A stretch of DNA of 54,330 nt, from the IMG/VR virus record IMGVR_UViG_3300044846_004207, positions 1 to 54,330 of that record. One strand, written 5' to 3'. Below the pieces are notes generated by a model. That model ran no database searches, was not told the origin of the DNA, and was given only the letters and a program-made list of their open reading frames with translations. This document shows positions 10,663 to 48,363 of the stretch, in pieces. Numbering within the stretch: the first letter of the stretch is position 1; each line of letters opens with the position of its first letter. The position numbers and the translations under genes are program-made. This DNA is from a virus. Lineage: Duplodnaviria > Caudoviricetes.

Positions 10663-10669
10663 AAATAAC

Positions 10670-11848: not shown

Positions 11849-12418
11849 ATGTACGGAACAGAAAACAAAAAACATTTAGGTGGTTATATAATAAACTTAA
11901 CAGATCATGGAGATCCTAATTCATATTCTACGGAAGTATGGGATTGGATGATTAATAACGGTATAAAATCGATAATAGATGTTGGTTGTGGGGAAGGGCA
12001 TTCAACAAAATATTTTTTAGATAGAGGTGTCGACGCTATAGGGGTAGAAGGGGGTGAAAACGCATATAACAACAGTCCTGTCAAAAATAATTTGGTGTTA
12101 CATGATTACGTTGATGCTCCTTTTATACCAAAAAAAAAATATGATGCAGTTTGGTCTTGTGAATTTGTAGAACATGTTGAAGAAGTTTTTTCTGAAAACT
12201 TTTTAAAAACTTTCGATTTTGCCGATAAAATTTTTATGACACATGCGGTTGTTGGACAAGAAGGGTATCATCATGTAAATTGTCAGAACACAGAATATTG
12301 GATTGAAAAAATAGAAAAAAGAGGTTATAAGTATAACAATGATTTATCTATATATTTAAGAACCTTGACTGATAAAATACATGTGAAAAACACATTATTA
12401 GTGTTTGAAAAAATATGA
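11849..12418 (+). CDS. Class I SAM-dependent methyltransferase
   Basis: IDVGCGEG, EFVEH, GQEGYHHVN. Confidence 0.85.
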   Translation: MYGTENKKHLGGYIINLTDHGDPNSYSTEVWDWMINNGIKSIIDVGCGEGHSTKYFLDRGVDAIGVEGGENAYNNSPVKNNLVLHDYVDAPFIPKKKYDAVWSCEFVEHVEEVFSENFLKTFDFADKIFMTHAVVGQEGYHHVNCQNTEYWIEKIEKRGYKYNNDLSIYLRTLTDKIHVKNTLLVFEKI

Positions 12419-13064: not shown

Positions 13065-13071
13065 TAAAATT

Positions 13072-13836
13072 ATGGGTGTAAGTATTGATAATTGGTTTGG
13101 TAGATTAGGTAATAATATTATACAACTAACCTCCGCTTTAAGCTTTTGTGAAAAGAATAAAACTAATTTAACAATACCAAAACATGATGTAATAACAAAA
13201 ACAGAAATAGATTTAAACGGTGAAAACAATTTAACGTACTCAAATTTATTTTGGGGTGATTATGTTTCAGATGATGAAAGACGAAAACTAGCTAAAAAAT
13301 ATATATTACCAATACTTAAACACAAAAACATTAATTTAACAGACAAAGATTTAATAATACATCTTAGGGGTGGTGATATCTTTAGCCATAACCCACCTAA
13401 AAATTATGTGCAAGCCCCCATATCGTATGTTGAAAAAATAATACAAACAGAAAACCCAAAAAATATAATAATAGTTTATGAAGATTTTTCAAACCCAAGT
13501 GTTAATTATCTAATAAATAATTATAAAAATATTGTTTTGGTTAATAATTTAATAGAAGGGATAAGTTATATTTTATCTGCAAAAAAAATAGTTATAACTG
13601 GAGTCGGAACATTTGCTAGAAGTTTGGTAATGTGTTCTAACAATATTGAAAAAGTTTTCGTACCATCTTTTTTAAAAAAAGATAATAATAATGATAACAC
13701 TCTTTATGATTATGATTGTTGTGTTGATTATTCAGATTTAGAAATAATAAAAATTAATATACCAAACTACTTAACAACCAATAGCTGGGAATGGAATAAT
13801 GAAATAAAAAATTTATATGTAACACATAAATTATAA
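13072..13836 (+). CDS. Second, divergent GT11-like fucosyltransferase
   Basis: GRLGNNIIQ, IHLRGGD, GTF motifs. Confidence 0.65.
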   Translation: MGVSIDNWFGRLGNNIIQLTSALSFCEKNKTNLTIPKHDVITKTEIDLNGENNLTYSNLFWGDYVSDDERRKLAKKYILPILKHKNINLTDKDLIIHLRGGDIFSHNPPKNYVQAPISYVEKIIQTENPKNIIIVYEDFSNPSVNYLINNYKNIVLVNNLIEGISYILSAKKIVITGVGTFARSLVMCSNNIEKVFVPSFLKKDNNNDNTLYDYDCCVDYSDLEIIKINIPNYLTTNSWEWNNEIKNLYVTHKL

Positions 13837-13867
13837 TAATTGATAACATTAAATTAAAAAATATATA

Positions 13868-14845
13868 ATGAAAAAAGCACTTATTACAGGAATTAATGGT
13901 CAAGATGGTTCCTACTTAGCCGAATTACTTTTAGATAAGGGATATGAGGTTTGGGGTACAGTAAAAAGAAATTCAGTATCAGAAACACAATCCAATAGAA
14001 TAGATCATTTAAGGGACTTTAATAAAGTAAATTTAGAATACGCCGATTTGACTGATATGGCATCTTTAATTAGAGTACTATCTTTAGTTCAACCAGACGA
14101 AGTGTATAATTTAGCAGCACAATCACACGTAAGAATATCTTTTGATCAACCAATTTATACCGCAAATGCAACAGGATTAGGTACGTTAAATTTATTAGAA
14201 GCAGTTAGGATGGTTTCACCACATTCCAAAATTTATCAAGCATCTTCATCAGAGATGTTTGGTAACAATATTGATATTGACAGTTACCAAAGAGAAACTA
14301 CCCCGATGAACCCTGTTTCTCCTTATGGTTGTGCCAAAGTATTTTCTTACAACATTTGTAAGAATTATAGAAATTCATACGGAATGAAAATTTGGAATGG
14401 TATTCTATTCAATCACGAATCACCAAGAAGAGGGACAAATTTTGTAACTAACAAAGTTGTTAAATCCGCTGTCAGAATCAAGTTAGGGTTACAAGATAAA
14501 CTACATTTAGGAAATCTTGACGCAACAAGAGATTGGGGGCACGCAAAAGATTATGTTAAGGCAATGTGGATGATGCTACAAACAGATACACCTGATGATT
14601 ACGTTTGTGCAACAGGAATATCACATTCGGTTAAAGATTTATGTGAATACACATTTACAAAATTAAATTTAGATTTTAAAGAATTTGTTGTTGTAGATGA
14701 AAAACATTTCAGACCCGAAGAATTACACGATTTAAAAGGTGACTCGTCAAAATTAAAAAATAAATTAGGTTGGATTCCTGAATACACATTTGAATCAATG
14801 TTAGACGAAATGATTCAATATTGGTTAGATTATTATGGAAAGTAA
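13868..14845 (+). CDS. gmd: GDP-mannose 4,6-dehydratase
   Basis: ITGINGQDGSYL, NLAAQSHV, QASSSE, SPYGCAK, FNHESPRRG. Confidence 0.97.
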   Translation: MKKALITGINGQDGSYLAELLLDKGYEVWGTVKRNSVSETQSNRIDHLRDFNKVNLEYADLTDMASLIRVLSLVQPDEVYNLAAQSHVRISFDQPIYTANATGLGTLNLLEAVRMVSPHSKIYQASSSEMFGNNIDIDSYQRETTPMNPVSPYGCAKVFSYNICKNYRNSYGMKIWNGILFNHESPRRGTNFVTNKVVKSAVRIKLGLQDKLHLGNLDATRDWGHAKDYVKAMWMMLQTDTPDDYVCATGISHSVKDLCEYTFTKLNLDFKEFVVVDEKHFRPEELHDLKGDSSKLKNKLGWIPEYTFESMLDEMIQYWLDYYGK

Positions 14846-15746
14846 GGTATTAATCACGGGCGGTAATGGTTTAGTTGGTTCCGAATTTAAAGGAGATATT
14901 TATTTCAAACCTACTTCTAAACAATTTGATTTGATTGATAAAAATCAAACATATAGTTTATTATTAAAAAATTTTGATAGTGTTATACATTGTGCGGCTA
15001 AAGTTGGTGGTATTGGTGGGAATATGAATTTTAAAGGAGAATTCTTTTATGATAATATAATGATGAACACAAATATTATTGAGGGATCAAGATTAACAGG
15101 TGTTAAGAATTTAGTTTGTTTTTTATCCACTTGTATCTTTCCTGATAATGTTGAATACCCGTTAACAGAACCAAAAATTCATTTAGGTCCTCCACATTTT
15201 TCAAATGATGCGTATGCTTACGCCAAAAGAATGGCTGATGTACAAATAAGAGCATATAAAGAGCAGTACGGTTTAAATTATAAATCGGTTATCCCAACTA
15301 ACATATACGGACCAAATGATAACTACAATTTAAAAAACGGACACGTAATACCTTCTTTGATACATAAATGTTACTTAGCAAGAGAAAATAAAACCGACTT
15401 TATTGTGTGGGGTAGCGGTAACCCAATGAGGGAGTTCATTTTTAGTAGAGACGTAGCAAAACTAACGGAATGGGTATTACATAATTACAACGAAAGTGAA
15501 CCAATAATACTATCAACGTCGGATGAAATATCAATAAAAGATGTGGTTGAAGTAATAATAGAGTTAATGAATTTTAAAGGTAACGTAACTTTTGACACCT
15601 CAAAACCTGACGGACAATTCAGAAAACCATCAGATAATTCAAAAATAAAAACATATTTACCTGATTTTAAATTTACATCATTATATGATGGTTTGAAAGA
15701 AACTATTGAATTTTTTGAAACTAACTATAATTTTATAAGAAAATGA
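14835..15746 (+). CDS. fcl: GDP-L-fucose synthase
   Basis: GGNGLVGS, AAKVGGI, LSTCIFP, YAYAKR, PTNIYGPND, WGSG-x-P-x-REF. Confidence 0.95.
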   Translation: MESKVLITGGNGLVGSEFKGDIYFKPTSKQFDLIDKNQTYSLLLKNFDSVIHCAAKVGGIGGNMNFKGEFFYDNIMMNTNIIEGSRLTGVKNLVCFLSTCIFPDNVEYPLTEPKIHLGPPHFSNDAYAYAKRMADVQIRAYKEQYGLNYKSVIPTNIYGPNDNYNLKNGHVIPSLIHKCYLARENKTDFIVWGSGNPMREFIFSRDVAKLTEWVLHNYNESEPIILSTSDEISIKDVVEVIIELMNFKGNVTFDTSKPDGQFRKPSDNSKIKTYLPDFKFTSLYDGLKETIEFFETNYNFIRK

Positions 15747-16168
15747 AAAAATTAGTTGGTATAACTTGTAGTACTTTTGACTTGTTACATTCAGGACACA
15801 TTTTAATGTTAGAAGAATGTAAAAAACATTGTGACTATTTAATATGTGCACTTCAAAACGATCCAACAATAGATAGACAAAACAAAAACAAACCAGTACA
15901 AACTTTAGTCGAAAGATTTATACAATTAGATGCTGTTAAATACGTAGATAAAATAGTCCCTTATAATACAGAATCGGAATTAGAGGAAATATTTAAATCA
16001 TTTGACATAGATGTAAGAGTAATTGGTTTTGATTATTTCAATAAAGATTTTACCGCCAAACAAATTTGTATAGATAGAGGGATTAAAATTGTCTATAACA
16101 AAAGAGATCACAATTATTCTACAACAAATCTTAGAAAAAAAATACATAAAATAGAAAACAAATTATGA
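15743..16168 (+). CDS. Glycerol-3-phosphate cytidylyltransferase-like (TagD-like)
   Basis: TFDLLHSGH HxGH motif, R-x-H-x-YSTT. Confidence 0.85.
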   Translation: MKKLVGITCSTFDLLHSGHILMLEECKKHCDYLICALQNDPTIDRQNKNKPVQTLVERFIQLDAVKYVDKIVPYNTESELEEIFKSFDIDVRVIGFDYFNKDFTAKQICIDRGIKIVYNKRDHNYSTTNLRKKIHKIENKL

Positions 16169-24578: not shown

Positions 24579-26060
24579 ATGTCTATATATAAATCTTATT
24601 TTGATAAGTCGGATACTATACTTTATAATTCATATACCAATACCTCAAGAAACCCAATTGTTGAGTTGTTTTTTGGTAGATTGGACAATATCGGTATTCC
24701 TTTTGGTTTTAGTAGGTATATCTTTGATTTAGATTTAACCAAACTTACAAATCTATATAATGAAGGTGTAATCTCAACTGGGTGTACAGGGTTTAATGGA
24801 ATATCCCACACTTTAAGAATGACAAATACTTCGTTTTTTGATGGGGATTTATTAAATGATAAAACATCTCAAGGAAGAAGAAGAGCAACATCATTTGATT
24901 TAGTATTGTATAGAATACCAAAAACTTCAGGTACAACAGGTGACACTCAAGTTTGGGATAGTGGTGTAGGATATGATTATTACGATTATAAAATAAATCC
25001 ATATAACGACAAATCTTATTCGGATAGACCTGTCAATTGGTTTCAAACAACAACTATTAGTAATTGGTCGTTACCTGGAATATATGATAATACAAACTCA
25101 CAAGTAGAAACAGGTTTGAATTTTAGTGGGTTAACTATCATAGATACCCAACATTTTGAATTTGGTAATGAAGATATCGAGTTTGATATGACAGACGAAA
25201 TAAACGGGATATTACAGGGTACAATAACTGGAGTAACAGGATGGGGTATTTCATATTACCCACAAGTTGAAAACATATCAGGACTTACTGAAAACTATTC
25301 CGTAGGGTTCTTTTCCCCTAATACACAAACATTTTATGAACCATTTTTAGAGACAAATTACGACGATTTAATTATTGATAATAGAACCACGTTTTACGCT
25401 GGAAATAATAACAATTTATACTTATTTGTTTATGAAAATGGAAATCCAGTAAATCTTGACTCACCTCCATTAGTTGATATCCAAGATATGGATGGGACTT
25501 ACATTTCAGGTTTTATTAATTTACCATCTTGTCTTGTAACAAAAGGGGTTTATAAAGTAAATGTTAATAATTTAACAGGAGTAACAACTCCTTGTTTATA
25601 TTATGACATATGGAAAAATTTGTCAATTAACGGAACATCATTAAGTAATCAAGAAAATGAATTTGTATTGTTAGCAAAAAATGGAAACATAAAAATTGGT
25701 AGTACAACAGAAACACCAAAACTTTATGGGTTTGACTTTTTTGGTATTAAACAAAACGAAAAAATATTAAACACAGATGTTAGAAAAGTTAACGTCATAA
25801 TAAAACAAGCATACACTTCAAGTCAACCATTATTCAATGTCGAAGCCTATTATAGAATTTATGTTAGAGAAGGGGCTAATACCGAAGTTCAAGTTCAAGA
25901 TTGGACAAGAATAAATCAAACTGTAGATGGGTATTATTTCATTTTTGATACAACAGATAAATTACCAAATGAATATTTTATAGACATTAAAGTTAATAGT
26001 GATAGAAACATTGACACATATAAACGAGAATTACAATTCCAAATAGTTAATAAAAAATAA
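24579..26060 (+). CDS. Probable virion structural protein
   Basis: Beta-rich, Thr/Gly-rich; late motif upstream; structural context. Confidence 0.55.
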   Translation: MSIYKSYFDKSDTILYNSYTNTSRNPIVELFFGRLDNIGIPFGFSRYIFDLDLTKLTNLYNEGVISTGCTGFNGISHTLRMTNTSFFDGDLLNDKTSQGRRRATSFDLVLYRIPKTSGTTGDTQVWDSGVGYDYYDYKINPYNDKSYSDRPVNWFQTTTISNWSLPGIYDNTNSQVETGLNFSGLTIIDTQHFEFGNEDIEFDMTDEINGILQGTITGVTGWGISYYPQVENISGLTENYSVGFFSPNTQTFYEPFLETNYDDLIIDNRTTFYAGNNNNLYLFVYENGNPVNLDSPPLVDIQDMDGTYISGFINLPSCLVTKGVYKVNVNNLTGVTTPCLYYDIWKNLSINGTSLSNQENEFVLLAKNGNIKIGSTTETPKLYGFDFFGIKQNEKILNTDVRKVNVIIKQAYTSSQPLFNVEAYYRIYVREGANTEVQVQDWTRINQTVDGYYFIFDTTDKLPNEYFIDIKVNSDRNIDTYKRELQFQIVNKK

Positions 26061-28078
26061 TGGCAAATTTTATTAAATTACAAGCATCGGTTTGTTGTAC
26101 TGAAGAGGTAGTACAATTTGTTGTTGACGATATAACTAGTGCAATAACAACAGGAAATACGTACTATTTCACCGTTGGGGAAAACCGTTACTGTGCAACC
26201 GTTGATGCAATTCAAGCCGGTGAAGGTCCAGCAAGGGCAACTTTTACTGGAGATTACACATCTTGTGAAGAGTGTTTAAGTGGAATAACAACTGCTGTAC
26301 AAGTTACAGAATGTGTAAGAGGGGAAAGTTATTTTATTGATATTGCAACATTTACAACATTACCAACAATTGGTGATGTTTATTATATGACAATAACTTT
26401 AGACGATACTATCATAACGAGTTGTTTTACCATTAGATGTTTTGTAACACCAAGAGATGGTGAGAGAATCTTAAGTTTAACATCTATTAGTGATTCATAT
26501 ACTGGATGTACCGAATGTTTAGTAAATAATTTTACAATATATCAAGTTAATACTTGTTTAGAACCCTTTACCGCCTATTATATTGAATTTCCTTCTGGTT
26601 TTGATTATAGCAACTATGTTGTGACTTTTATTGATAGTTTTGGTGATATACAATGTGGTATTACCGATACCGTCCAAGAGACTGAAGCAACAGGGACATT
26701 AATTTCTATTTTAGGTACAAATTTTGATGTTTCTTGTGAAGAATGTTTAGCAATTAGTAATGAAAAAAGAATTATAACAAATTGTTTAACAGGAGGGACT
26801 GAAGTTGTTTGGGGTTCTGTATTTTATGAAGGCGCTGAAGTCACAAATTTATCAACAAATACAGGTTGTTTTGAGGTAGGCGATTTAACTGAATCTGCAG
26901 TTACAATTAATACCTTTTTAGATTATAACCCACAACCTGATTGTCAAGAATGTATTCAGTGTGACGGCGTAGATTATTATTATTCGAGTTGTACAGAAAA
27001 CGGACCAATTGCAAACATAAGTTACGACGCAGGTTCAGAATTATTGGATGGTGAATATTTCCTTACAGGAACCACAGACGGTAATGGTGTTGGTGCATTT
27101 TTTAATGTAGTCGTTGATGGTGGTAGTATTTTAAATATTAGTTTTGGTAGTGGTATTGGTTATCAAGTAGATGATACGATATCAATAAGTTCACCTCCTT
27201 TTGGTGGTTCTGATCCATTTGTAATAACTATTACTGATGTAACATTAACTGGTATTGTTAGATCGTACCAATATGTGAATAATGCAGTTGGAAAAACGTT
27301 TTTTGTACCTCAATTAAATTCGTGTGTTGAGATTACATTAGTTGCAAACCCATCAGACGCATTACCAAATTATTATTTATATAGTTTTGATGTTTTTGAT
27401 AATTGTCCGCAGTGTGAATCAGAAGCTGATAATTTTTATATATGGAAAACAAGGGAATGTGGTACTGGTTTAAACTATATTGTTGTTTTGGATAGCAATT
27501 CTTTCACAACAGGAGACTATGTTAAAGTAAAGAGAGGGACAATTGATTTTCAGTGTCATGAATTAATATCACCATATGATTTTATAACTGATCGTAATTT
27601 GAATTCTTATATTTCAAATACAACATCCCCTTTTAGTGATTGTGAAACTTGTAATATCGGAACTTTGATTGGTGCATCCATTGTTAAATGTGGTGGTGGA
27701 GGACAACAGTTTGTTAATATTCCAATTGATATATGGAATATAATGGCATATACAGACAGTCAATTAGTGTTTGTAACTCAAAATTATGGACAATGTTATA
27801 TTTTATTAAATAGTTGTCCATTAGAACCTAATTACACGACAATAACACCCGTATCAACATATTATAACTGTATTCAATGTGTTTTTGATAACACAAGATT
27901 TCCAAGAAGTGCAAATACAGAAACTTTAATATGTGTTGTTTGTTGTGATTGTGGTTCTACAGGAAGCACAATAACCCAAGTGGCTCCACCACACCCAGTA
28001 TATACCGATCAATATGGTACTGATGTAACACAAATGAATATGGTTGTACTTGGTGGTCCAAAAGGATTGAATAATTAA
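26060..28078 (+). CDS. Cys-rich repeat protein, probable virion fibre/surface protein
   Basis: Repeated C..C..CxxC units (CEEC, CTEC, CEEC, CQEC, CPQC, CETC, CIQC) and terminal CVVCCDC. Confidence 0.65.
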   Translation: MANFIKLQASVCCTEEVVQFVVDDITSAITTGNTYYFTVGENRYCATVDAIQAGEGPARATFTGDYTSCEECLSGITTAVQVTECVRGESYFIDIATFTTLPTIGDVYYMTITLDDTIITSCFTIRCFVTPRDGERILSLTSISDSYTGCTECLVNNFTIYQVNTCLEPFTAYYIEFPSGFDYSNYVVTFIDSFGDIQCGITDTVQETEATGTLISILGTNFDVSCEECLAISNEKRIITNCLTGGTEVVWGSVFYEGAEVTNLSTNTGCFEVGDLTESAVTINTFLDYNPQPDCQECIQCDGVDYYYSSCTENGPIANISYDAGSELLDGEYFLTGTTDGNGVGAFFNVVVDGGSILNISFGSGIGYQVDDTISISSPPFGGSDPFVITITDVTLTGIVRSYQYVNNAVGKTFFVPQLNSCVEITLVANPSDALPNYYLYSFDVFDNCPQCESEADNFYIWKTRECGTGLNYIVVLDSNSFTTGDYVKVKRGTIDFQCHELISPYDFITDRNLNSYISNTTSPFSDCETCNIGTLIGASIVKCGGGGQQFVNIPIDIWNIMAYTDSQLVFVTQNYGQCYILLNSCPLEPNYTTITPVSTYYNCIQCVFDNTRFPRSANTETLICVVCCDCGSTGSTITQVAPPHPVYTDQYGTDVTQMNMVVLGGPKGLNN

Positions 28079-28088
28079 AACATAATGA

Positions 28089-28096
28089 TATTTATA
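28089..28096 (+). promoter_or_regulatory. Putative late promoter TATTTATA
   Basis: Recurrent motif upstream of ATG 28110. Confidence 0.55.
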
Positions 28097-28109
28097 TAAA
28101 AAAGAAAAA

Positions 28110-28736
28110 ATGGCAAATTATATTGTAGAAGGTTGTTTAGATGGTTTAGAGTATATTGTATCGGCATCTACAACACTATCACCTCTTGAGGTTATTGATT
28201 TTAACTTTGGCGAAGAACCAGCGATTTGTGGTACAGTTATATCTGAAACTGAACTTGAACCCCTACCGTTATATACTTATTTACATTCTTATACTGATTG
28301 TTGTGATTGTTTTACTGGTGGTACTTTACAATCTTTAGAATTTCAAAACTGTGACGGGACAACTTTTTTATACAGTATAAGTGGTTTTTGTGAAGTTTAT
28401 GGTAGTAACCCAAGAAAAGATGAGGTATTTCAATTTTCTGAAAATGAAGTATTATTTTGTGCTACTTTTATAGAGGGAAAAGATGATATACCTGATGACA
28501 ATAATTATTTTCCTGAAAACGGTCCATTTGTTACTTGTAATGAATGTGAATCAGACATACCAAGATCGGCAAATACCGAAGCAACTGTTTGTGTAATTTG
28601 TTGTGATTGTGGTTCAACTGGTGGTACAATAAATCAAATTACCCCACCTAATCCAGTATGGACTGATGGATATGGTACAGATGTAACACAATTAAATATG
28701 ATTGTTCTTGGTGGACCAACAGGTTTAAATTCTTAA
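28110..28736 (+). CDS. Short Cys-rich paralog of the upstream gene
   Basis: Two Cys repeats plus a near-identical C-terminal PRSANTE...CCDCGSTG...VLGGP domain. Confidence 0.7.
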   Translation: MANYIVEGCLDGLEYIVSASTTLSPLEVIDFNFGEEPAICGTVISETELEPLPLYTYLHSYTDCCDCFTGGTLQSLEFQNCDGTTFLYSISGFCEVYGSNPRKDEVFQFSENEVLFCATFIEGKDDIPDDNNYFPENGPFVTCNECESDIPRSANTEATVCVICCDCGSTGGTINQITPPNPVWTDGYGTDVTQLNMIVLGGPTGLNS

Positions 28737-29269: not shown

Positions 29270-29548
29270 ATGAAGAACAAAAAAATTTATGTGTTAAGAA
29301 CAGGAGGACTTTCCAAGATTGATAACAGGTTTCATTTTCACGATATTGAAGTTTTTTCTTCAAATAAAAAAATTAACGATGAAATCAAAAAAAGAATCGA
29401 CATTAATAAGGGTACAAATGTCAGATATGATGAAGGATTTTGTGGTTATGGAACATACCAAAACACTTTGATTACTTACGATTCAATAGATATTGATGAA
29501 AATCCAATAACAATCAGATATGAATTATTAGAAAAAAAGTTAAATTAA
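29270..29548 (+). CDS. Hypothetical protein (ATG at 29270 preferred)
   Basis: ORF downstream of a host-type promoter. Confidence 0.65.
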   Translation: MKNKKIYVLRTGGLSKIDNRFHFHDIEVFSSNKKINDEIKKRIDINKGTNVRYDEGFCGYGTYQNTLITYDSIDIDENPITIRYELLEKKLN

Positions 29549-30267
29549 AGAATAGATAAAATACTTTTTACAAGAAAATCAACGGACTCATTTTGAGTTT
29601 TTTTCTTTTTTGGTTTGTATGAAACCATTATTGGTTTTTGTCCCTTTCCTGTTTGAGTATCTTTTTTCTCGGCTCTTCTTTTTTGTTGACATGCAGCTCT
29701 TTTTTGTGCTGCCGTCATATTTCTTGCAACATTCACCGCTCTACATTTAGGATAACCCTTCGATTCACCTTCAGGTCTACCACATGGTGGATGTCCACCA
29801 CCTTCCTTTTTTCTGCAAATATTAACCCAAGGACCTTGTGGTTGTTTAGAACCTTTTCCTTTCTTTTTTGTTCCAAACCAAACTGCCAAATCTTCATTTA
29901 AATTAATACTATCTAACTCAACCCATTCTTTTAGTGGTACAAAATTTTTATTTTTTCCTGGCGTTGCATTTATAATTCCTCCGTCATCATCACTAAATGT
30001 TTTATGAGTCTTATTATATTTAGAAATTTTACGTGCCTTTGATTCCATTTTTTTAATGTTTTTTTTACCAGTATCTAATGTACCATCATAACTATCATAT
30101 TCTAATTCGGCATTGAAAAAATCAGAAACTTTGGTGCTAAATGGTGCAGTTTCAGTTTTGTTCCATTCAATCTCGCCCATAGTTAAAGGTCCGTTATATG
30201 ATCCAGCGTATCTATTAGAATTTGCTTCTTTAATGATTGTCCTTACAATATTTTTTATATTTAACAT
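29545..30267 (-). CDS. Hypothetical protein with DUF5872-like basic C-terminal domain, candidate internal head protein
   Basis: EDLAVWF...PWVNI...PCGR...YPKCR; IVRTIIKE leader; late motif at 30282-30289. Confidence 0.55.
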   Translation of the reverse strand: MLNIKNIVRTIIKEANSNRYAGSYNGPLTMGEIEWNKTETAPFSTKVSDFFNAELEYDSYDGTLDTGKKNIKKMESKARKISKYNKTHKTFSDDDGGIINATPGKNKNFVPLKEWVELDSINLNEDLAVWFGTKKKGKGSKQPQGPWVNICRKKEGGGHPPCGRPEGESKGYPKCRAVNVARNMTAAQKRAACQQKRRAEKKDTQTGKGQKPIMVSYKPKKKKTQNESVDFLVKSILSIL

Positions 30268-30301
30268 ATAAACTGTTTATATATAAATATATTATAACTT
30301 C

Positions 30302-31387
30302 TTATTTAAATACTTTTTTCATTGTACCATCGTCATAAATTATAACATAAATTTCATTTGACGAAAAATCATTAACTTCTTGTCCCATCATATTAATAAT
30401 TTTTATTATTTTTTTTTGATTTAAGGAATTATCTATTGATACAACATTGAAGTATTCTTTTTCACCATTAAAATCTGTTTGATACAATCTATAATAGTTT
30501 ATTTCACCTCTTTTAAATGTTTTATCAGTGTATGAATAGTTTAATACTTCTTGTGAATTACCAGCACCCCCCATATTTGTTATGGTTTCCCAATAACTAC
30601 CATCAATAGAACGTTCAAGTGTAAAATAATTGTTATCTTTTTCAGATGCGGTAGCCCAATATAATAAATTAATCCCATCATTTTCTGTCCCATCAAAGAA
30701 AATAAGTTCTATTGGTAATGGGATTATTTCAATAAGTTCAATATTATCAATCCACCATTCTTCACCTGAGGCATTTACTCTACATAAAATATCTATGGCA
30801 ACTTGTGATATATTTGTTGGGAGATTAAGTGTGATTGTGGAAGGTCCTGTAGTAGTTACCCCCGCAGGTGCTTGATAAACGTCACCCGTTGGTGCGACTG
30901 AATTAGTAAAACTTCCATTTGCTGTGTGGGTGATTGTTCCTGTTGCGGTATAATCCCATCTTGCGTTATTATTACCTGTGATTCTTAATTCGGAAATATA
31001 ATTAACCCCCCCATTTGTAGAAACTTGAACATCGACAATATCAGCAACATCTACCCCCCTTGTTGTTGCGGTTGAATTTGAAAATGTGTATGAAGCCAAA
31101 CGAAATTTAAGTTGGTATTGTCTGTTTATGTTTAAACCCGTTACATTTGGTAACGAATACCAATCTTGTTCATTACCCGATGTTCCCGAACCTGAACCAT
31201 ATATTACAGCACTAAGTGTTGGTGAAACAGATGCGTTATTAAACCAACCTGCCGTCACCGCTGGTGTCCACCATCCGGCAGATAAGTATACGGATGATGA
31301 AGTTTCCATATTATCAAACTGAATAACTGTTTGACTTATTAGTATATTTGATACTAAAACAAATAACGTAATTAATAAATTTTTCAT
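30302..31387 (-). CDS. Secreted protein with signal peptide, PLPIEL Ig-like domain and T9SS type A-like C-terminal sorting domain
   Basis: MKNLLITLFVLVSNILIS|Q; PLPIELIFF...WATASE...FTLERS-DG...YYRL-QTDFNG; IINMMGQEV...YDDGTMKKVFK. Confidence 0.75.
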   Translation of the reverse strand: MKNLLITLFVLVSNILISQTVIQFDNMETSSSVYLSAGWWTPAVTAGWFNNASVSPTLSAVIYGSGSGTSGNEQDWYSLPNVTGLNINRQYQLKFRLASYTFSNSTATTRGVDVADIVDVQVSTNGGVNYISELRITGNNNARWDYTATGTITHTANGSFTNSVAPTGDVYQAPAGVTTTGPSTITLNLPTNISQVAIDILCRVNASGEEWWIDNIELIEIIPLPIELIFFDGTENDGINLLYWATASEKDNNYFTLERSIDGSYWETITNMGGAGNSQEVLNYSYTDKTFKRGEINYYRLYQTDFNGEKEYFNVVSIDNSLNQKKIIKIINMMGQEVNDFSSNEIYVIIYDDGTMKKVFK

Positions 31388-31486
31388 ATGATTTCTTTTT
31401 AAATAATTATATGAAACATTTTATTTTTTTAAAACAGATTTAATTGATATTTTATCAAATAATAGTTTTACACGAATATAATGGGG

Positions 31487-32176
31487 TTAATTTAAAATTT
31501 TATTTGACTTACGGATGTTCTCATCTCCCCATAATGGCTGGAGGTTTTCTAATGACCAACATTTATTAAACCCCTCGTCACCTATTTCTTTAATATCAAA
31601 TGATGAAATTGGGATGATGTGATCTACGTGCCATTCCCCATAATTATCCCAAGTAATATCTCCTGTAAATTTGTTTTCTAAATGTTCTATTAATTGTTCG
31701 GGAGTATAATTTAGTATCTCAAAATAGTGTCCGTTTTTTTGAATGTTTCTTTCTTTTAATACTTGATAAATTGCAGTTCTGAAATTGTTGATTAACTTGT
31801 ATATTGGATCGTTTGCTTTACGAGTTTTTTCGTAATTTCTTTTGGTTTCTCTAATTTTATCTATATTTTTTTCACGGTATTCTTTCATATATTCTTTACG
31901 GTGTTCTTTATTTTGTTCGTACCATTTATCGTAATTTTTTCTTTTACGTTCTTTAGTTTGTGGTTTTAATTCATATTTTTTCATTGCAATTTTCCTACCA
32001 CCAATATTTCTCCTACCAGAATTACCCATAACAATACCATTGTCTTTTAATATACGAATTATTGTTGGTTTACTTAAACCCGTTTTTATAGATATTGTAT
32101 GGGATCCAAGTAAATCTTCATTGTACCATTTTAATATATCGGTTAATTCTTCTTGTGTAGGAATATATTTCTTCAT
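31487..32176 (-). CDS. HNH endonuclease with N-terminal HTH, probable free-standing homing endonuclease
   Basis: YGEWHVDHIIP...NLQPLW..ENIRKSNK; lies directly downstream of the capsid gene. Confidence 0.8.
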   Translation of the reverse strand: MKKYIPTQEELTDILKWYNEDLLGSHTISIKTGLSKPTIIRILKDNGIVMGNSGRRNIGGRKIAMKKYELKPQTKERKRKNYDKWYEQNKEHRKEYMKEYREKNIDKIRETKRNYEKTRKANDPIYKLINNFRTAIYQVLKERNIQKNGHYFEILNYTPEQLIEHLENKFTGDITWDNYGEWHVDHIIPISSFDIKEIGDEGFNKCWSLENLQPLWGDENIRKSNKILN

Positions 32177-32230
32177 ATAGTATAAATATATTACATTTTA
32201 CCAAAAAATCAATTGTTAACTTTATTGTAT

Positions 32231-32258
32231 AAAAAAAGGGACAATTTCTTGTCCCTTT
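32231..32258 (-). terminator. Intrinsic terminator after major capsid gene
   Basis: aaagggacaa-tttc-ttgtcccttt perfect stem with U-tract on the minus strand. Confidence 0.85.
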
Positions 32259-32281
32259 AAGGTGTTATTTAAGGTTTTTGA

Positions 32282-34096
32282 TTATCTCAATTCTCTTAAA
32301 TCAAATGTACGAACACCATCAACTGTAATTCGGCCGTAGAACCTGTTATTTACCATCTTCTTAGCGTATCTTGTCATAATACCTTTGATTGGTGTAAAGT
32401 TAAATGGATTGTACATTGTAGGTGTCAATTGTAGAGGTACATACGGTGCGTAAACGTACCCAGTATCCAACAATGATGTTCCTTTATGTCCAATTAGGAT
32501 TTGGTTTGGTGGGAAGTATGGGTCACGGTACACTTGGTAACGTCCTGCCAATGTTCCAACTCTTTCAATACCCATATTGTACTGATCTTGCTCAGGAGAT
32601 GCGTTAGATACGTGGAAGTATTCTAAATCATCAAAGATTGCAGAAACTTCAGAAGATACAACAATCCAGTTAGCTCCACCTCTCAATGTAGATTTGTGGA
32701 TTTGTGCTGACAATTGGTTGATTGCTGTAATCAAAGTTTGATTCCAATCTTTTTGAGTGTATGATGTTGTTTGAGAAATTCTTCTCCATCCGTTGTAATC
32801 CCAACGTAGGTTCCATGCTGCTCCTTTTCTCAAGTCACGTAGAATTTCACGGTCGATTTCTGCTGCCACTTGCTCAGAAAGTAAAGCTGTCAATTCAGCT
32901 TCAGCATCGATGTTGTGGAATGCAGAAACGTCTTGTGCTAATTCAGGAGACCATTGAGCTCTTAGTTTTCTTTCAGTTACAGAAACAGTTACTGATTCTA
33001 AATCAAAAGAAACCTCACCAATTTTGTCTTCGAATTCAAGTTCAGCATATCTTCTATACACAACAGTAAATGCCGATCCAGAAGTTACAGCTGAAAGAGT
33101 TGCTCCTGTGTAACCATCTAAAGATGTTGCATTACAGTCAGCACATACAGGACAAGAAAGATCAACTTCTAAAAAGATACAACCATTTTGGTCACAAACA
33201 TCATCATAAGATCCACCATTTCCTGACGCAGGGAACGTAGCTTGTGTTTGAGTATATGTAGGTTGTACAATTCCTTTACCATAAATTTGAGTAACAACTC
33301 TAAACAAAAGTGGTCCAGAACCTACAGAACAAGGGGATGTTGCAGAAACACCTAAACCTGTACTTTTAGCTACTTTCAAGTCAGAAAGGAACGCTTCAGT
33401 ATCAATTTCGTTACCATCAGGTCCGATTAATTTACCTACACCAGCATTTGCAAAACCACATACTTTGATGATTACTTTTCTAACACCTGTTGTTTCATAA
33501 TCAGTTTCGTTTGGTACTAATGTACCGTTACTCCAAGAAACAGTAGTAACTTCAGGAGCAGTAACTGCTGTCCATTGTCCTTTTGAATAATCAAAAAGTC
33601 CTGGTGGATCTAAAGCCGCCTCAGCACCTTCGTAGAATAAATCGTAAAGATTTTTTGCGTAAGCATTTGCATCGTTGTAACCACTATTTGTGTCTGTACT
33701 TGAACCAGGAGCTCCAATTGGTGCAAAGTGAGAACCACCATTAGCAGTTGCTCCGTTATAACCTTGGATTTTAGGTACAAAGTAGAACAATTTACCGATA
33801 GGTAAGTTCATTGCTTGTACAGAAACGATGTCGTTTGCCAACAATTTAGAGAATACACGTCTTACGATAGGGAAAACTACAGTTTCGAAAGAACCTGAGC
33901 TATCAGTTGACGCAGCTTCGTTAATTAGGTGAGATGCTTGGTTTTCATATAATTGTGCCATATTCTCTTTAATGTGACCTTTAAGTCCATCTAGGAATCC
34001 TAATCTATCCCATTTGTTAATTGTATCTTCTTTGATAACTTTAAGGTGCTTAAGACCGATGTTACCAACAAGACCTGATTCTAATAATGCTCCCAT
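32282..34096 (-). CDS. Major capsid protein (T4 gp23-like)
   Basis: VSVQAM, RKLRAQWSPELAQD, EAELTALLSEQVAAEIDREI, YAPYVPL, GIMTRYA. Confidence 0.95.
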   Translation of the reverse strand: MGALLESGLVGNIGLKHLKVIKEDTINKWDRLGFLDGLKGHIKENMAQLYENQASHLINEAASTDSSGSFETVVFPIVRRVFSKLLANDIVSVQAMNLPIGKLFYFVPKIQGYNGATANGGSHFAPIGAPGSSTDTNSGYNDANAYAKNLYDLFYEGAEAALDPPGLFDYSKGQWTAVTAPEVTTVSWSNGTLVPNETDYETTGVRKVIIKVCGFANAGVGKLIGPDGNEIDTEAFLSDLKVAKSTGLGVSATSPCSVGSGPLLFRVVTQIYGKGIVQPTYTQTQATFPASGNGGSYDDVCDQNGCIFLEVDLSCPVCADCNATSLDGYTGATLSAVTSGSAFTVVYRRYAELEFEDKIGEVSFDLESVTVSVTERKLRAQWSPELAQDVSAFHNIDAEAELTALLSEQVAAEIDREILRDLRKGAAWNLRWDYNGWRRISQTTSYTQKDWNQTLITAINQLSAQIHKSTLRGGANWIVVSSEVSAIFDDLEYFHVSNASPEQDQYNMGIERVGTLAGRYQVYRDPYFPPNQILIGHKGTSLLDTGYVYAPYVPLQLTPTMYNPFNFTPIKGIMTRYAKKMVNNRFYGRITVDGVRTFDLRELR

Positions 34097-34129
34097 TTTT
34101 TATTTTTTTAATTTGAGTTTATTTATTGT

Positions 34130-35767
34130 TTATTTTATTTTTCCCATTAAATCCTTCATTCTCAAGAATTGTGGATTTTCATAAGTTTTATTTTCAATTA
34201 GATTAGTAGAGGAACCATTAGAAGGTGTTTGAACAACTCTTCTTTCAATTGATTCTTTAATTGTATTGGTAGAACCTTTACCGTCTAATTCTGTTTTGAT
34301 TGTTTTGTATAAAGATTTTGATTCTTTCAAAGTATCAACTTCGTCAAATCTTCTAAGAATGTTAATCTTTTCTTGTTTAGTTGTTGAATGTTCTGTGAAC
34401 AATCTTGTAGAGTATGCTAAATTGGAATTGAATACAGCAACTTCATTTAATTTGTTTCTGAAGAAATCTAAAGCCTTTTTGTACTCTTCATTTTTTTCTC
34501 TCAACAAATTAACTTCTTGTTGTACAGATTCAGTATGAACTCCATTTTCTCCGTAAACAAGATTTCTGTTTGGTGTAATACCTTTTCTTAAACCTCTACC
34601 TCTTTTGGAACCTTTTCCGTAAGTTCTTGCGGCTTCGTTGTGTTCTGCTTCCATTTCATCAACTTCATCAAGTTCTTTGTCTTCCATTTCGGTAACTCCG
34701 TGTTTAATTTTAGGGTAATTGAATTTAGGTCCTTTTCTTTTGTTTTTGTCACCTAATTTCATTTCATCTTTGAAACCTTTATTGTTTACTTCCATTTTAG
34801 AGAAAGTTTTCATTGGTTTACCGAAACCAAGTCCGATAGCTCTAAATGATTCCATTACAGAATCTAAAACATCTTGATCGATTTCATAAACATTTTCTTC
34901 TTGCTCTTCTTTGTCCATATCCCAACCTTCGAATTCTTCTTCTTCATTGTACATACCTTCGAATTCTTCTTCTTCATTGTACATACCTTCGAATTCTTCT
35001 TCTTCATTGTACATACCTTCGAATTCATCTTCTTCATTGTACATACCTTCGAATTCATCTTCTTCGTTGTACATATCTTCGAATTCATCTTCTTCATTGT
35101 ACATACCTTCGAATTCATCTTCTTCGTTGTACATATCTTCTTCGTCCATATACATTTCTAAATTGTCCGACTCATCAACTTCTAACTCATATATTACATT
35201 TTCTGCCATTTGAGCTTGTTCGTTATCTTCGAAAGTGTCGTCAGCATCACTAATTAGATATTCAGCATCTGTATCGTTATCTTTCAAATGAATATAATCA
35301 TTATCCTTTTTAACAATGATACCGTCTTCATCACCCATCGCTTTGAATACTTTCAAAATTTCTTCAGGAGTTGCAGTTGTCATATCTAATGGTGGCATTT
35401 CGTCACCTTCTTCATTATCACCCATCATCATAGGTTCTTCTAGGTCTAATGTATCGCCTACATTTTCATCGCCTTGCGGCTCATCGAATTTTTCTACTGC
35501 CGAAAAATCAACCTCATCTTCTCCTTCAGGTTCAAAATCCATCTCTGCATCAGCATCAATTTCTTCTTCTCCTTCAGGTTCTTCTGGTGCATCTTGTTCA
35601 CGTAGATTTTTTTTGTAACCACCTAATGATTCTTTTACTAACTCACTGATTTCTTCCTTCATTGTAGAAGCAAGTATTCCTTTTGCGTTTTCATTGATAG
35701 CATCTTCAAGGTTTTTTATTTGTAATAAAGCCTCTTCAACTACCGATTTATTTTCATTTATTCCCAT
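34130..35767 (-). CDS. Prohead core/scaffold protein
   Basis: Highly acidic, coiled-coil C-terminus, lies between protease and capsid genes. Confidence 0.75.
   Translation of the reverse strand: MGINENKSVVEEALLQIKNLEDAINENAKGILASTMKEEISELVKESLGGYKKNLREQDAPEEPEGEEEIDADAEMDFEPEGEDEVDFSAVEKFDEPQGDENVGDTLDLEEPMMMGDNEEGDEMPPLDMTTATPEEILKVFKAMGDEDGIIVKKDNDYIHLKDNDTDAEYLISDADDTFEDNEQAQMAENVIYELEVDESDNLEMYMDEEDMYNEEDEFEGMYNEEDEFEDMYNEEDEFEGMYNEEDEFEGMYNEEEEFEGMYNEEEEFEGMYNEEEEFEGWDMDKEEQEENVYEIDQDVLDSVMESFRAIGLGFGKPMKTFSKMEVNNKGFKDEMKLGDKNKRKGPKFNYPKIKHGVTEMEDKELDEVDEMEAEHNEAARTYGKGSKRGRGLRKGITPNRNLVYGENGVHTESVQQEVNLLREKNEEYKKALDFFRNKLNEVAVFNSNLAYSTRLFTEHSTTKQEKINILRRFDEVDTLKESKSLYKTIKTELDGKGSTNTIKESIERRVVQTPSNGSSTNLIENKTYENPQFLRMKDLMGKIK
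34926..35135. repeat. Seven tandem 30-bp coding repeats (MYNEED/EEFEG) in scaffold gene
   Basis: Unit ccttcgaattc(t/a)tcttcttc(a/g)ttgtacata repeated head-to-tail. Confidence 0.95.
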
Positions 35768-45813: not shown

Positions 45814-46257
45814 ATGAAAAATTTGATTTTGTCTTTAGTAATGTCAGTAGTAAGTTTGGTTTCTTTTTCACAAGTAATTGAAATTGAATTCAGTAAGTTC
45901 ACTCTTTTTAATACAGGTATGTTAAGAGGGTATGATAATGTAATTGATTCCACGAATTATGTGGCGGTTGATAAAGATATGGTAGGTAAAAATAAGTATG
46001 TATTTGACTTGGATAATAAAACTGCAAAAAGATACTTCAATGGATTACTTGCTGAGAGTACTGATATTCTTACCTTCACAAAAAAAGGAAGTACTGTAGT
46101 TCTTACGATGAATGATAAAGAAACGTCTACTGGTAAAACTGTTGTTAGTACTGTTCATTTAAACACTAACAAGAACGATAAAACTAAACCTCACTACTTA
46201 ATGTACTTTATCAGTACTGTAACAAATACAACTAATGGTACGATTGTGTACAATTAA
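45814..46257 (+). CDS. Exported beta-rich protein with Sec signal peptide
   Basis: MKNLILSLVMSVVSLVSFS|Q. Confidence 0.75.
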   Translation: MKNLILSLVMSVVSLVSFSQVIEIEFSKFTLFNTGMLRGYDNVIDSTNYVAVDKDMVGKNKYVFDLDNKTAKRYFNGLLAESTDILTFTKKGSTVVLTMNDKETSTGKTVVSTVHLNTNKNDKTKPHYLMYFISTVTNTTNGTIVYN

Positions 46258-46287: not shown

Positions 46288-46794
46288 TTATTTAACTTTA
46301 ACAGAAGAACAATACTTAGATGTCATATCAGCAATCGCCCCTTTATTAGGATAAGTTCCACCGTACATTGATTGACTCATCCAATTTTTAGCACTATTGG
46401 TGTCAAAGTTTGATTCCCTACCAGTTGACTTAAAATTAATATCAGTATATGTGTCATAAGAACCACCAGTTGCTCGTCCCATAGTACCCGTATTACAATC
46501 ATAAACCATAGATGCATATGTGTCAGGTTTCCCATCCATTGCAATACGAATTCCTAATTTACCTGGTTGTACAACCATATTACCTTTATTGTCTTTAAGT
46601 TTTTGTGGGTATGCTTGAACCTTAAATTTTACATCTGCTCCTGATGCATAATTTGCTGAATATTCTCTATTTTCTATACCAATTATGCTTGTGTAAAATT
46701 CCGGAGTCATAGTTGTTGTTTCAGTTTTTTCACTGATAACTCTTTTTATAATTCTTGTTAAATCTGATTCTGTTAATCTTATAATTCTTTTCAT
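46288..46794 (-). CDS. LTESDL-leader protein, copy 4
   Basis: MKRIIRLTESDLTRIIKRVISEKTETTTMTPE leader. Confidence 0.85.
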   Translation of the reverse strand: MKRIIRLTESDLTRIIKRVISEKTETTTMTPEFYTSIIGIENREYSANYASGADVKFKVQAYPQKLKDNKGNMVVQPGKLGIRIAMDGKPDTYASMVYDCNTGTMGRATGGSYDTYTDINFKSTGRESNFDTNSAKNWMSQSMYGGTYPNKGAIADMTSKYCSSVKVK

Positions 46795-46817
46795 ATAGTT
46801 TTTTATTTTATTTTATT

Positions 46818-47321
46818 TTATACCTTTGAGCAATAATTAGATGTCATATCAGCAATTGCCCCTTGATTTTTAAATAATCCTTCTGCATTATGAAGAGTGT
46901 TTTGTAAAATTTGTTTTCCCATCGCATGATCATAATTACTTTCTCTTCCGACACCTATAATATTTAAATCACTATAATCATCACCAATATATCCCATACT
47001 TCTAGTGAATGTTCCATTTTTACAATCATAAATTGTGCGTCCATAAGTGTTAGGTTTACCTGGCAATTCTATTGTAATATACAGTTTACCTGGTTGTCTA
47101 ACTGACTCCCCTTTATTGTTTTTAACGTAATAACCTGATGGTGTAACTTTAAACATAACATTCTTTTTTGATTTATCAAAAGCCTGTAATTCTTTACCAC
47201 CTATTCCATTTATTTTAGTATAACTTTCTGGAGTCATAGTTGTTGTTTCAGTTTTTTCACTGATAACTCTTTTTATAATTCGAGTTAAATCCGATTCTGT
47301 AAGTCTTATTATTCTTTTCAT
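46818..47321 (-). CDS. LTESDL-leader protein, copy 3
   Basis: Same 32-aa leader; body homologous to copies 2 and 4. Confidence 0.85.
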   Translation of the reverse strand: MKRIIRLTESDLTRIIKRVISEKTETTTMTPESYTKINGIGGKELQAFDKSKKNVMFKVTPSGYYVKNNKGESVRQPGKLYITIELPGKPNTYGRTIYDCKNGTFTRSMGYIGDDYSDLNIIGVGRESNYDHAMGKQILQNTLHNAEGLFKNQGAIADMTSNYCSKV

Positions 47322-47341
47322 AGTTTTTTTATTTTTTTTAT

Positions 47342-47839
47342 TTATACTGATTTACAATATTTAGATATCATTGTTGCAATAGTACCTTTTACAGGATACG
47401 TACCACCCTTCAAACTTTGGTTCAATAAGGATATTGCTCGTTCTGTGTCGTATTTAGCCTCCCATCCACCAATTGAAAAAATATAATTACTGTAATTATT
47501 ATCCAAACTACCTTGTGCATAACTCATAATATTTTTTTTACAATCATATGTCATAAGAGCTTTGGTATTAAGTTTACCATCCATCTTTACTTCTATACCC
47601 AACTTGCCAGGGTCAGCCACCATATTACCTTTGTCGTCTTTTATTTTAGGTTTGTATGGTGTAATTGTAAATGTCACGGGATTACCTGATTTATCTGTTC
47701 CTGAAATGGTTCTGTCACCAACACCCCTAAATTCAGTTACTGTTTCCGGAGTCATAGTTGTTGTTTCAGTTTTTTCACTGATAACTCTTTTTATAATTCT
47801 TGTTAAATCTGATTCAGTTAATCTTATTATTCTTTTCAT
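47342..47839 (-). CDS. LTESDL-leader protein, copy 2
   Basis: Same 32-aa leader; PGKL, YDC, YC conserved. Confidence 0.85.
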   Translation of the reverse strand: MKRIIRLTESDLTRIIKRVISEKTETTTMTPETVTEFRGVGDRTISGTDKSGNPVTFTITPYKPKIKDDKGNMVADPGKLGIEVKMDGKLNTKALMTYDCKKNIMSYAQGSLDNNYSNYIFSIGGWEAKYDTERAISLLNQSLKGGTYPVKGTIATMISKYCKSV

Positions 47840-47856
47840 AATTTTTATTTTTATTT

Positions 47857-48363
47857 TTATTTTGCAGGAGTACTAGGTATTGCTGATTGTAAATTTTTAA
47901 CCCAATCCAAAACTTTAAATGATTTACTAGCACTTGAAATAAGCCCACCAGGTACTTTAGAACCATAATTATCAAAATTTGATTTAAAATAGCTAGCAAC
48001 ATTATTGTATGTTGCTTCAGTATTGAGGGGTTGTTCGGCACCTCCAACATCTATAATAGCACTTGGTTTAAGTATTTCAAGGTTTTGTCCTGATACTGCA
48101 TCCTTGAAAACGTTAAAGGTACATCTAACAGCACTATTAGCAGCAACAACTTTATAATGGTTATTTTTAGGAAAAAATGTAACCGACTCTACTACCAAGT
48201 TCCCATCATTAGGAAAAGTACAATCATACGATTTTCCATTAACTGTTATTTTTAAAGGTATTGTTTGTCCTGGGGTTAATACTGTCGTTTCCACTTTTTC
48301 ACTAATAACTCTTTTTATAATTCGAGTTAAATCTGATTCTGTTAACCTTATAATTCTTTTCAT
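47857..48363 (-). CDS. LTESDL-leader protein, copy 1 (dissimilar body)
   Basis: Same 23-aa leader; late motif at 48381-48388. Confidence 0.85.
   Translation of the reverse strand: MKRIIRLTESDLTRIIKRVISEKVETTVLTPGQTIPLKITVNGKSYDCTFPNDGNLVVESVTFFPKNNHYKVVAANSAVRCTFNVFKDAVSGQNLEILKPSAIIDVGGAEQPLNTEATYNNVASYFKSNFDNYGSKVPGGLISSASKSFKVLDWVKNLQSAIPSTPAK

Follow-up and report, generated by a model that had tools for sequence, protein, structure and literature searches.

What use would a tailed phage have for a protein that seems built for the outside of a bacterial cell? The question is raised by a gene in a stretch of viral DNA of 54,330 nt that we refer to as the window (IMG/VR virus record IMGVR_UViG_3300044846_004207, completeness 16% by CheckV estimate). 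The gene is an intact open reading frame (ORF) of 361 codons with an ATG start, at 30302-31387 on the minus strand, and an initial annotation had read its product as a type IX secretion system (T9SS) cargo protein; the frame is real, and all the sequence elements listed in that annotation are present and conserved among relatives. The answer towards which we lean, with moderate confidence, is that the phage protein is exported by the Sec pathway and carried by the host T9SS. The link to the T9SS is drawn from homologues that end in a full C-terminal sorting domain (CTD), from CTD motifs retained in the protein itself and from a complex model of a bacterial short tail with the carrier PorV. From its sequence, the protein probably leaves the cytoplasm of the infected cell. 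Its parts are as follows.

31331..31387, minus strand: putative signal peptide, residues 1-19, with an n-region including Lys2, a hydrophobic core of about 14 residues and Ile-Ser before Gln19
30725..31330, minus strand: passenger, residues 20-221, a predicted beta-jelly-roll like CBM, MAM and cleaved-adhesin domains according to VIA-align and atlas leads
30428..30724, minus strand: FN3-like 'pre-CTD' module, residues 222-320, assigned by fold matches and by its position before the CTD
30410..30427, minus strand: variable linker, residues 321-326, mean pairwise identity 0.16
30305..30409, minus strand: short tail, residues 327-361, a candidate shortened type A CTD by motif and profile comparison with full CTDs

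In 24 of 25 aligned homologues the N-terminus is hydrophobic, though its sequence varies (the remaining one is truncated N-terminally), Gln19-Thr20 is at least 90% conserved in the same set, and AlphaFold2 (AF2) predicts a helix at residues 2-15 followed by a dip in the predicted local distance difference test (pLDDT). A sequence heuristic, the helix and the conserved hydrophobicity agree on a Sec signal peptide of the kind found on T9SS type A cargo. Gln19 stands directly after the hydrophobic core, and signal peptidase I probably cleaves before it, which would conform to the Q-rule for Bacteroidota substrates, a Gln immediately behind the cleaved bond (Bochtler et al. 2018, PMC5837995). The originally proposed combination of a Sec signal peptide and Gln at +1 is borne out by the hydrophobic N-terminus and the conservation of Gln19 in relatives.

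An AF2 model of the whole protein, computed from a 60-row alignment, has a mean pLDDT of 92.7 and comprises a beta-rich region at 20-221, in keeping with the beta-rich passenger that had been predicted, a beta-sandwich at 227-319 and three last strands at 327-332, 346-351 and 356-360. The three strands form the short tail that had been noticed at the C-terminus, and the conservation of this tail leaves little doubt that it is a genuine element: G335, Y351, D353 and G354 are invariant in the 25 aligned relatives, K358 is kept in 23 of them and replaced by Arg in the other two, and mean pairwise identity is 0.39 in the tail versus 0.43 and 0.41 in the folded domains and the much lower value of the linker. 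Aligned with 68 full CTDs, the tail lines up with the D/N..G-K/Q.V strand-loop at the centre of the CTD and with its two final strands, without the opening YPNP strands (motif A) and without a middle segment of about 20 residues; a comparison of 111 unique short tails with the 68 full CTDs in hhalign gives P=4e-5 and a probability of 70%, with an 18-residue gap. In terms of the motifs A-E named in a review of the system (PMC10202324, section 'Type A CTD'), the tail appears to keep motif B (N332, G335, Q336, V338), the D region (Y351-x-D353-G354) and E (K358) and to have lost A and C, and the motif B Gly and the C-terminal motif E Lys of type A cargo are both in place.

The type A CTD consists of a four-strand sheet (b4-b3-b6-b7) and a three-strand sheet (b5-b2-b1), and mutations in P. 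gingivalis show that secretion depends on the b3-b4 loop, including its Gly, and on the strand at the C-terminus (Mizgalska et al. 2024, PMC11285876). For HBP35, the 22 C-terminal residues, which contain motifs D and E, were enough for the secretion of GFP, and in an AlphaFold model motifs B, D and E sit on PorV loops (both PMC10202324), while a near-invariant Lys close to the end of the CTD touches PorV (Lauber et al. 2024, PMC10994853). These observations bear on an alternative that we regard as unlikely, though worth a serious hearing, namely that the protein is exported by Sec and makes no use of the T9SS, its tail being a structural remnant. Such a protein would be periplasmic, lie on the inner face of the outer membrane or be freed by lysis, and might, for example, bind peptidoglycan or envelope glycans. 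A tail that is conserved like the folded domains, and that retains exactly the motifs linked to secretion and to PorV, speaks against a remnant.

Where the tail came from can be read from the relatives of the protein. Searches at E<=1e-3 recovered 715 homologues, and an exhaustive profile-free search found 55,712 cluster representatives that match at least part of the protein at the same threshold; the best 120 homologues listed are all 335-390 aa long and lie on contigs of up to 277 kb. Eight family members of 392-429 aa (P0123, P0135, P0137, P0147, P0150, P0151, P0168 and P0215) have the same N-domain and FN3 and end in TIGR04183 at 25.8-53.4 bits (curated cut-offs are 23 bits for TIGR04183 and 27 bits for PF18962), P0123 being 53% identical to the phage protein over residues 1-321. 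A ninth member, P0270, stays under the cut-off at 18.1 bits, and seven members of 344-363 aa have no TIGR04183 match. P0215 is the chromosomal Hymenobacter busanensis protein WP_160619856.1, named by NCBI as a T9SS type A sorting domain protein; its contig measures 4.8 Mb. The sequence of P0135 recurs at 100% identity in viral loci L066, L068 and L069, and L070 and L062 contain relatives; neighbours in L068 match phage endolysin families, and no capsid or terminase gene lies within 8 kb. Further N-domain relatives with full CTDs (P0126 to P0153) come from metagenome contigs.

A second cargo family repeats the pattern. A chromosomal short-tail protein (L089/L310), whose gene is flanked by murB and a DEAD-box helicase gene, has homologues in four further genomes of Flavobacteriales; these share its passenger and FN3 and carry a full CTD instead. 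Because both cargo families, that of the phage protein and that of L089/L310, include full-CTD relatives, the tail appears from sequence to be a deletion derivative of the type A CTD, arisen or exchanged within families of genuine cargo. The exchange of short tail for full CTD between homologous proteins counts against a T9SS-independent protein, and the descent from Bacteroidota T9SS type A cargo that had been suggested is upheld by the full-CTD homologues together with the retained CTD motifs. A full-length family alignment run against genome contigs gave 60 pattern matches, none of them confirmed, and no cultured phage in INPHARED encodes the protein, the only matches there being four uncultured huge-phage records that cover part of the C-terminal region.

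Like established type A cargo (RgpB and HBP35 of P. gingivalis, RemA and AmyB of F. johnsoniae; CTD models TIGR04183 / PF18962), the phage protein has a Sec signal followed by Gln at +1, a passenger and a domain of Ig type ahead of its C-terminal element; motifs B, D and E, with the Lys close to the end, are found at the C-terminus, and homologues with the full CTD reach 53% identity. It differs in its tail of about 35 residues and 3 strands, whereas a CTD has about 70-100 residues and 7 strands; the deleted parts are motif A (YPNP) and the middle segment, and the curated models are blind to what is left. The claim of a typical type A architecture therefore stands for signal peptide, passenger and CTD motifs and falls short at the C-terminus, which is a shortened variant without a match to any CTD model.

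The initial annotation had also taken a series of motifs, PLP.EL, W.TASE, ERS.DG and YYRL.Q.D, as part of the sorting module. They are present and conserved (W244, E249, Y298, D305 and G308 are invariant in 60 sequences), but they form an FN3-like domain that normally stands before the CTD and is distinct from the sorting domain; CTD ancestry is confined to the tail. Residues 223-324 match FN3 domains at Z 10-11.5 and rmsd 2.1-3.0, the match to 4u49_A having Z 11.5 and rmsd 2.1 over 83 aligned residues, and the FN3 domains of Ihog and fibronectin are also found; the Pfam fn3 hidden Markov model (HMM) does not match the protein. In long forms, the model NF038113 (T9SS-dependent M36 peptidase) spans the last third of the module plus the CTD.

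Module and tail recur together well beyond this family. Among the 150 matches listed, residues ~221-361 pair with the extreme C-terminus of proteins of 140-1885 aa (P0188, P0200, P0224 and P0236 are examples), for which Pfam reports passengers such as T9SS cargo usually has, namely GBD_T9SS_assoc, Ig_7 'CHU_C associated', PKD, GEVED, Gly_rich_2 and subtilase, and no CTD. TIGR04183 is passed by 8 of 48 scanned representatives, exactly those with ~70 more residues after the N-domain or the module. A scan of 185,579 species genomes yielded at least 591 confirmed places of the unit, and the best 80 of these all lie in records titled Bacteroidota, one being titled only 'bacterium'. One ORF among the best 80 runs off its contig; in the 79 complete cases the stretch between the start of the module and the C-terminus has a bimodal length, 172-199 aa in 68, 135-147 aa in 10 and 166 aa in one. 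TIGR04183 stands above its cut-off directly after the module in 21 of 22 long forms and in none of the short ones, from which it follows that the module is a 'pre-CTD' domain and that the tail takes the place of the CTD. A unit that ends many unrelated signal-peptide proteins behaves as a sorting signal does, a further point against a T9SS-independent route.

Short and long forms coexist within one genome. The idea that the short tail is specific to phages was rejected, for in cellular assemblies 10 genes with the short tail have housekeeping neighbours, such as MurB, DEAD-box helicase, DAHP synthase, MnmA and a TonB receptor. A Fluviicola metagenome-assembled genome (MAG) has six short-tail genes, five of them in a row (L235, L239, L244, L254 and L258; G001 contig C58, ~33-48 kb); this array, with products of 574-1425 aa within ~15 kb, consists of putative chromosomal paralogous cargo. 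On viral loci, 88 of 107 unique short-tail ORFs begin with a signal-peptide-like N-terminus by the heuristic, against 42 of 796 control ORFs, nearly all signal peptides of the printed short-tail ORFs end in S/A/G-Q, and 103 unique viral passengers fall into 16 clusters. A module-only recount of tail types in viral loci, at 105/106, is biased towards short tails because the loci were fetched with short-tail queries, and it misses the divergent modules of L062, L066 and L068-L070. Several viral loci (L160-L168, L074-L077, L059-L060) have two different module-bearing ORFs each, and one such ORF of L060 closes with a complete CTD of the YPNP type. One phage can thus encode several of these proteins, with both tail types.

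The carrier expected to meet such tails is at hand, PorV being above the cut-off in 4 of 4 genomes with short-tail proteins. A complex model of the Fluviicola-MAG PorV with a short-tail unit from the same genome scored 0.83, the best of 3 controls reaching 0.04; the score mark is reached by 58 of 80 solved complexes and by 2 of 110 mismatched pairs, counts that hold only roughly for this model since it was computed on custom alignments. Three runs agree in at least 74% of contacts, the pLDDT of the partner is at least 80, and the confident contacts of the partner all fall within residues 109-137 of 138, that is, in the tail, with the motif B stretch at the centre. The separation of 0.83 from 0.04 tells against a T9SS-independent tail, with the reservation that the pair is bacterial and that the result may echo known complexes.

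Against carriage by the T9SS, a number of results have to be set. TIGR04183, TIGR04131 and NF033708 (NCBIfam) as well as PF18962 and PF13585 (Pfam) do not match the protein at E<=1, so that the check by TIGR04183 / Por_Secre_tail HMM suggested at the outset came out negative even at this permissive threshold; residues 222-361 scanned alone match 0 families at E<=1, PHROGs has no family for the protein at E<=0.01, and no T9SS model matches any of the 10 bacterial short tails at E<=1. Two confident models give three strands after the FN3 domain in place of the seven-strand Ig-like sandwich of a CTD. The structural match to a CTD that had been hoped for did not appear, there being no solved CTD in the Foldseek and VIA-align lists for the full model or in the Foldseek list for the C-terminal model; these are filled by jelly-roll and FN3 domains, the tail was never folded alone, and the lists are uninformative on its own fold. 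In P. gingivalis an A719R mutant was not secreted, the integrity of the CTD being what mattered (PMC11285876, section 2.1), and the pocket of the translocon, sized and shaped for the whole CTD, buries ~40% of it (PMC10994853), so that a domain of half the size may escape its hold. At position 345 the allele in the window has Glu, in place of the motif-D Gly that is present in 24 of 25 relatives and in 98% of 111 unique short tails. The pair in the PorV model is bacterial and does not include the phage protein, its success may echo solved PorV-CTD complexes, and the contact residues on the PorV side lie only putatively in the extracellular loops. Metatranscriptome contigs from four freshwater sets (X15-X18) cover the major capsid protein (MCP) gene, at 32272-34100, and leave 30302-31387 uncovered, although RNA contigs lose rare and divergent sequence and the gap is no evidence of silence. 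A Bacteroidota setting, a point in favour, is supported by the best 80 genome places of the unit and by a second Q-ending signal peptide in the window, on a 147 aa protein at 45814-46257 (plus strand) whose Q-rule-type signal peptide ends in ..S-F-S-Q and which has no family match. The missing sorting-model matches to the phage and bacterial tails, the three strands in place of seven, a translocon pocket that fits the whole CTD (PMC10994853) and Glu345 at the site of a conserved Gly are also what recommends a T9SS-independent protein with a remnant tail.

A broader reading of the same material is offered tentatively, its chances being somewhat below even. By this account, the FN3 domain and the ~35-residue 'B-D-E' tail would together form a distinct, working minimal class of T9SS sorting signal, in the minority in freshwater Flavobacteriales chromosomes and dominant in their large T4-like phages. 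The tail would amount to a single sheet of the type A sandwich, supported by the FN3 domain and missed by current models, and the phages would push at least 16 kinds of fast-changing passenger through the host T9SS during infection.

If carriage by the T9SS is assumed, a possible course of events begins with export by Sec and a cut by signal peptidase I before Gln19 according to the Q-rule, as sequence and conservation suggest. The protein would then fold in the periplasm into a lectin- or adhesin-like jelly-roll, an FN3 domain and a three-strand tail, for which the structure prediction is of high confidence. Recognition of the tail by the host T9SS (PorV as carrier, SprA as translocon) and delivery to the cell surface or the medium would follow; this is the weakest link of the chain. 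Outside the cell, the passenger would bind a glycan or surface component. Receptor masking, either as superinfection exclusion or as protection of progeny from debris, and adhesion are plausible guesses at its role.

What the passenger itself resembles was assessed by VIA-align against 48,161 chains. Residues 19-221 match the CBM61 domain 2xom_A (Z 13.2, rmsd 2.6, 136 aligned), the K1 cleaved adhesin of P. gingivalis Kgp, 4itc_A (Z 12.5, rmsd 3.2, 145 aligned), and MAM domains (Z 11.7-12.1); Foldseek agrees with VIA-align on both the passenger and the FN3-like domain, and the atlas leads for the passenger are choice-of-anchor J, Cleaved_Adhesin and MAM, with scores of 0.85-0.89. The jelly-roll fold is thus common to the passenger and to the Cleaved_Adhesin (PF07675) / choice-of-anchor J / MAM group, exemplified by Lys-gingipain K1, which are binding domains of surface proteins, some of them T9SS cargo. 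No Pfam or NCBIfam family matches the passenger at E<=1, however, the Cleaved_Adhesin and MAM HMMs included, and identity in the structural alignments is 12-14%. Relatives of the passenger occur in 18 of 301 sampled Flavobacteriales genomes. Judged from the models, the passenger is a non-enzymatic, putatively glycan- or surface-binding jelly-roll.

The position of the gene in the phage genome opens a different explanation. The head genes close to the gene show that the window derives from a T4-like phage; prohead protease, portal and large terminase genes lie nearby, and GC around the gene is low, ~30%. Three further features define the surroundings.

32282-34096, minus strand: MCP gene, T4-type (PF07068 Gp23 at 4e-73)
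32235..32258, minus strand: intrinsic-terminator-like hairpin (10-pair stem, then a T run), just 3' of the MCP gene and upstream of the HNH gene and the gene for the secreted protein
31487..32176, minus strand: homing endonuclease gene, HNH / endonuclease VII-like, separating the MCP gene from the gene for the secreted protein (phrog_1035 at 9.6e-18)

The nearest cultured relatives of the MCP, at 42-43% identity, are in Microcystis phage Mel-JY01 and Flavobacterium phage immuto. The order of MCP gene, optional HNH gene and the gene in question recurs in 23 of 78 related viral loci, and up to 0.79 of the sampled words of the window at 29500-34100 are found in DNA runs labelled lake-water metagenome; a chimeric assembly at the locus, considered as a possible artefact, is ruled out by the recurrence of the order in 23 independent viral loci and by the words shared with lake-water runs. 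A gene directly downstream of the MCP gene in 23 loci could encode a virion component, a Hoc-like decoration protein or adhesin whose hydrophobic N-terminus is not a working signal peptide, an explanation that we hold improbable. Size, beta-sandwich modules and proximity to a capsid gene do recall T4 Hoc and other Ig/FN3 decoration proteins, many of which are built like this combination of FN3 and jelly-roll, and T9SS-domain ORFs lie near head genes in gut phages (PMC6949934). Yet for 55 of the 78 loci the flanks yielded no MCP gene, the gene and the MCP gene run convergently in L043 and L044, and a terminator-like hairpin follows the MCP gene in the window. This hairpin is a lead only, the regional total of such sites being no higher than in shuffles; likewise, sigma-70-like promoter sites show no excess (22 versus 22.7 in shuffles), Bacteroidota and T4-late promoter types being outside the method. 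T4 Hoc is not known to have a signal peptide or a T9SS-related tail. A decoration protein of this type would be expected to assemble onto capsids in the cytoplasm, free of an export signal; the protein of the window has a conserved signal peptide and a CTD-derived tail, the Gln at +1 is kept across the family and in unrelated short-tail proteins, no PHROG structural family matches, and the closest relatives are cellular secreted proteins.

The HNH gene had been offered as an explanation for the presence of its neighbour, and this cannot be maintained: it is found in only 8 of the 23 syntenic loci and is absent from L030, and since it is so often missing it is an independent insertion, a neighbour only and not part of the unit. 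The related suggestion of a captured host gene is right as regards the ultimate origin, which is cellular, and wrong as regards a recent capture at this place, the gene being established in a large group of uncultured phages. Across loci whose MCPs are 76-80% identical, the protein is 37-99% identical. In L030, the gene and ~90 bp upstream share 99.6% DNA identity with the window, this copy covering the first 194 codons and the upstream region, whereas the adjoining scaffold and MCP genes are only 75-81% identical; the contrast indicates that the cassette moved recently between phage backbones. On sequence comparison the gene is a cassette that diverges fast and is exchanged horizontally within a large, uncultured group of T4-like phages from fresh water. 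The recent spread implied by the 99.6% identical first 194 codons and upstream region in another backbone also renders very improbable a last alternative, that the allele in the window is a decaying copy devoid of function, with a tail hit first by deletions and later by Gly345Glu. In the alignment of 25 relatives no other sequence has Glu345, and no RNA contig runs over the gene, as decay would have it; the frame, on the other hand, is intact over 361 codons, and the short-tail class is conserved and abundant.

That phages encode T9SS cargo is already known, at least from the account of Bellas et al. (2020): in Cryophage, T9SS-tagged cargo is among the most variable and exchanged genes (PMC7468147), and in gut phage clusters T9SS-domain ORFs stand beside the head module (de Jonge et al. 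2019, PMC6949934). The gene of the window is variable in a like manner, with one allele swapped between backbones. As far as the main texts describe them, and leaving their supplements aside, the earlier examples combine enzyme, PA14 or BACON passengers with a type A domain that is readily recognised, in contrast to the non-enzymatic jelly-roll and shortened tag found here. What is new is a shortened tail that the models overlook, abundant in phages and found in some Flavobacteriales chromosomes as well; no description of a shortened type A CTD or of an FN3-plus-tail unit was found in the literature outside supplements. If the short tail works, it would be a natural minimal T9SS signal about half as long as family models and solved structures have it, it would fit the old puzzle of 22 HBP35 residues sufficing, and T9SS cargo inventories would undercount bacterial and viral proteins. 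Abundant phages of lake Bacteroidota would then remodel the infected-cell surface or its surroundings with variable secreted binding proteins, with a bearing on superinfection exclusion, particle attachment and carbon flow.

Other parts of the window may be recorded briefly. Some 15 kb at 1375-16168 (plus strand) are occupied by glycan-biosynthesis genes, including GT2, GT4, GT10, GT11 and other glycosyltransferases, a UDP-galactopyranose mutase, a GDP-mannose 4,6-dehydratase, an epimerase/reductase, three methyltransferases and a cytidylyltransferase; with these the phage could remodel host or virion glycans, which might relate to the lectin-like secreted protein. At 26060-28736 (plus strand), two adjacent Cys-rich proteins of 672 and 208 aa have a C-terminal block of ~60 residues in common and no family match, and the pair is kept beside the gene for the secreted protein in syntenic loci. 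At 604 aa the MCP is long; two stretches of it match Gp23 and a large part between them does not. Within its gene, at 33037-33777, 63-448 bases are skipped by RNA contigs from related phages, and both observations suggest that the MCP carries a variable insertion. A gene at 34130-35767 (minus strand) encodes an acidic scaffold-like protein with about seven tandem 10-residue acidic repeats, which make spurious repeat ORFs appear on either strand. At 46288-48363 (minus strand), four tandem paralogues of 165-168 aa, without a family match, are identical over their first ~23 residues (31 in three of them) and have diverged in the rest. A ClpB/Hsp104-like double AAA+ chaperone is encoded at 48480-50528 (plus strand; PF07724 at 1.2e-55), and a DenV-type pyrimidine-dimer glycosylase at 53106-53603.

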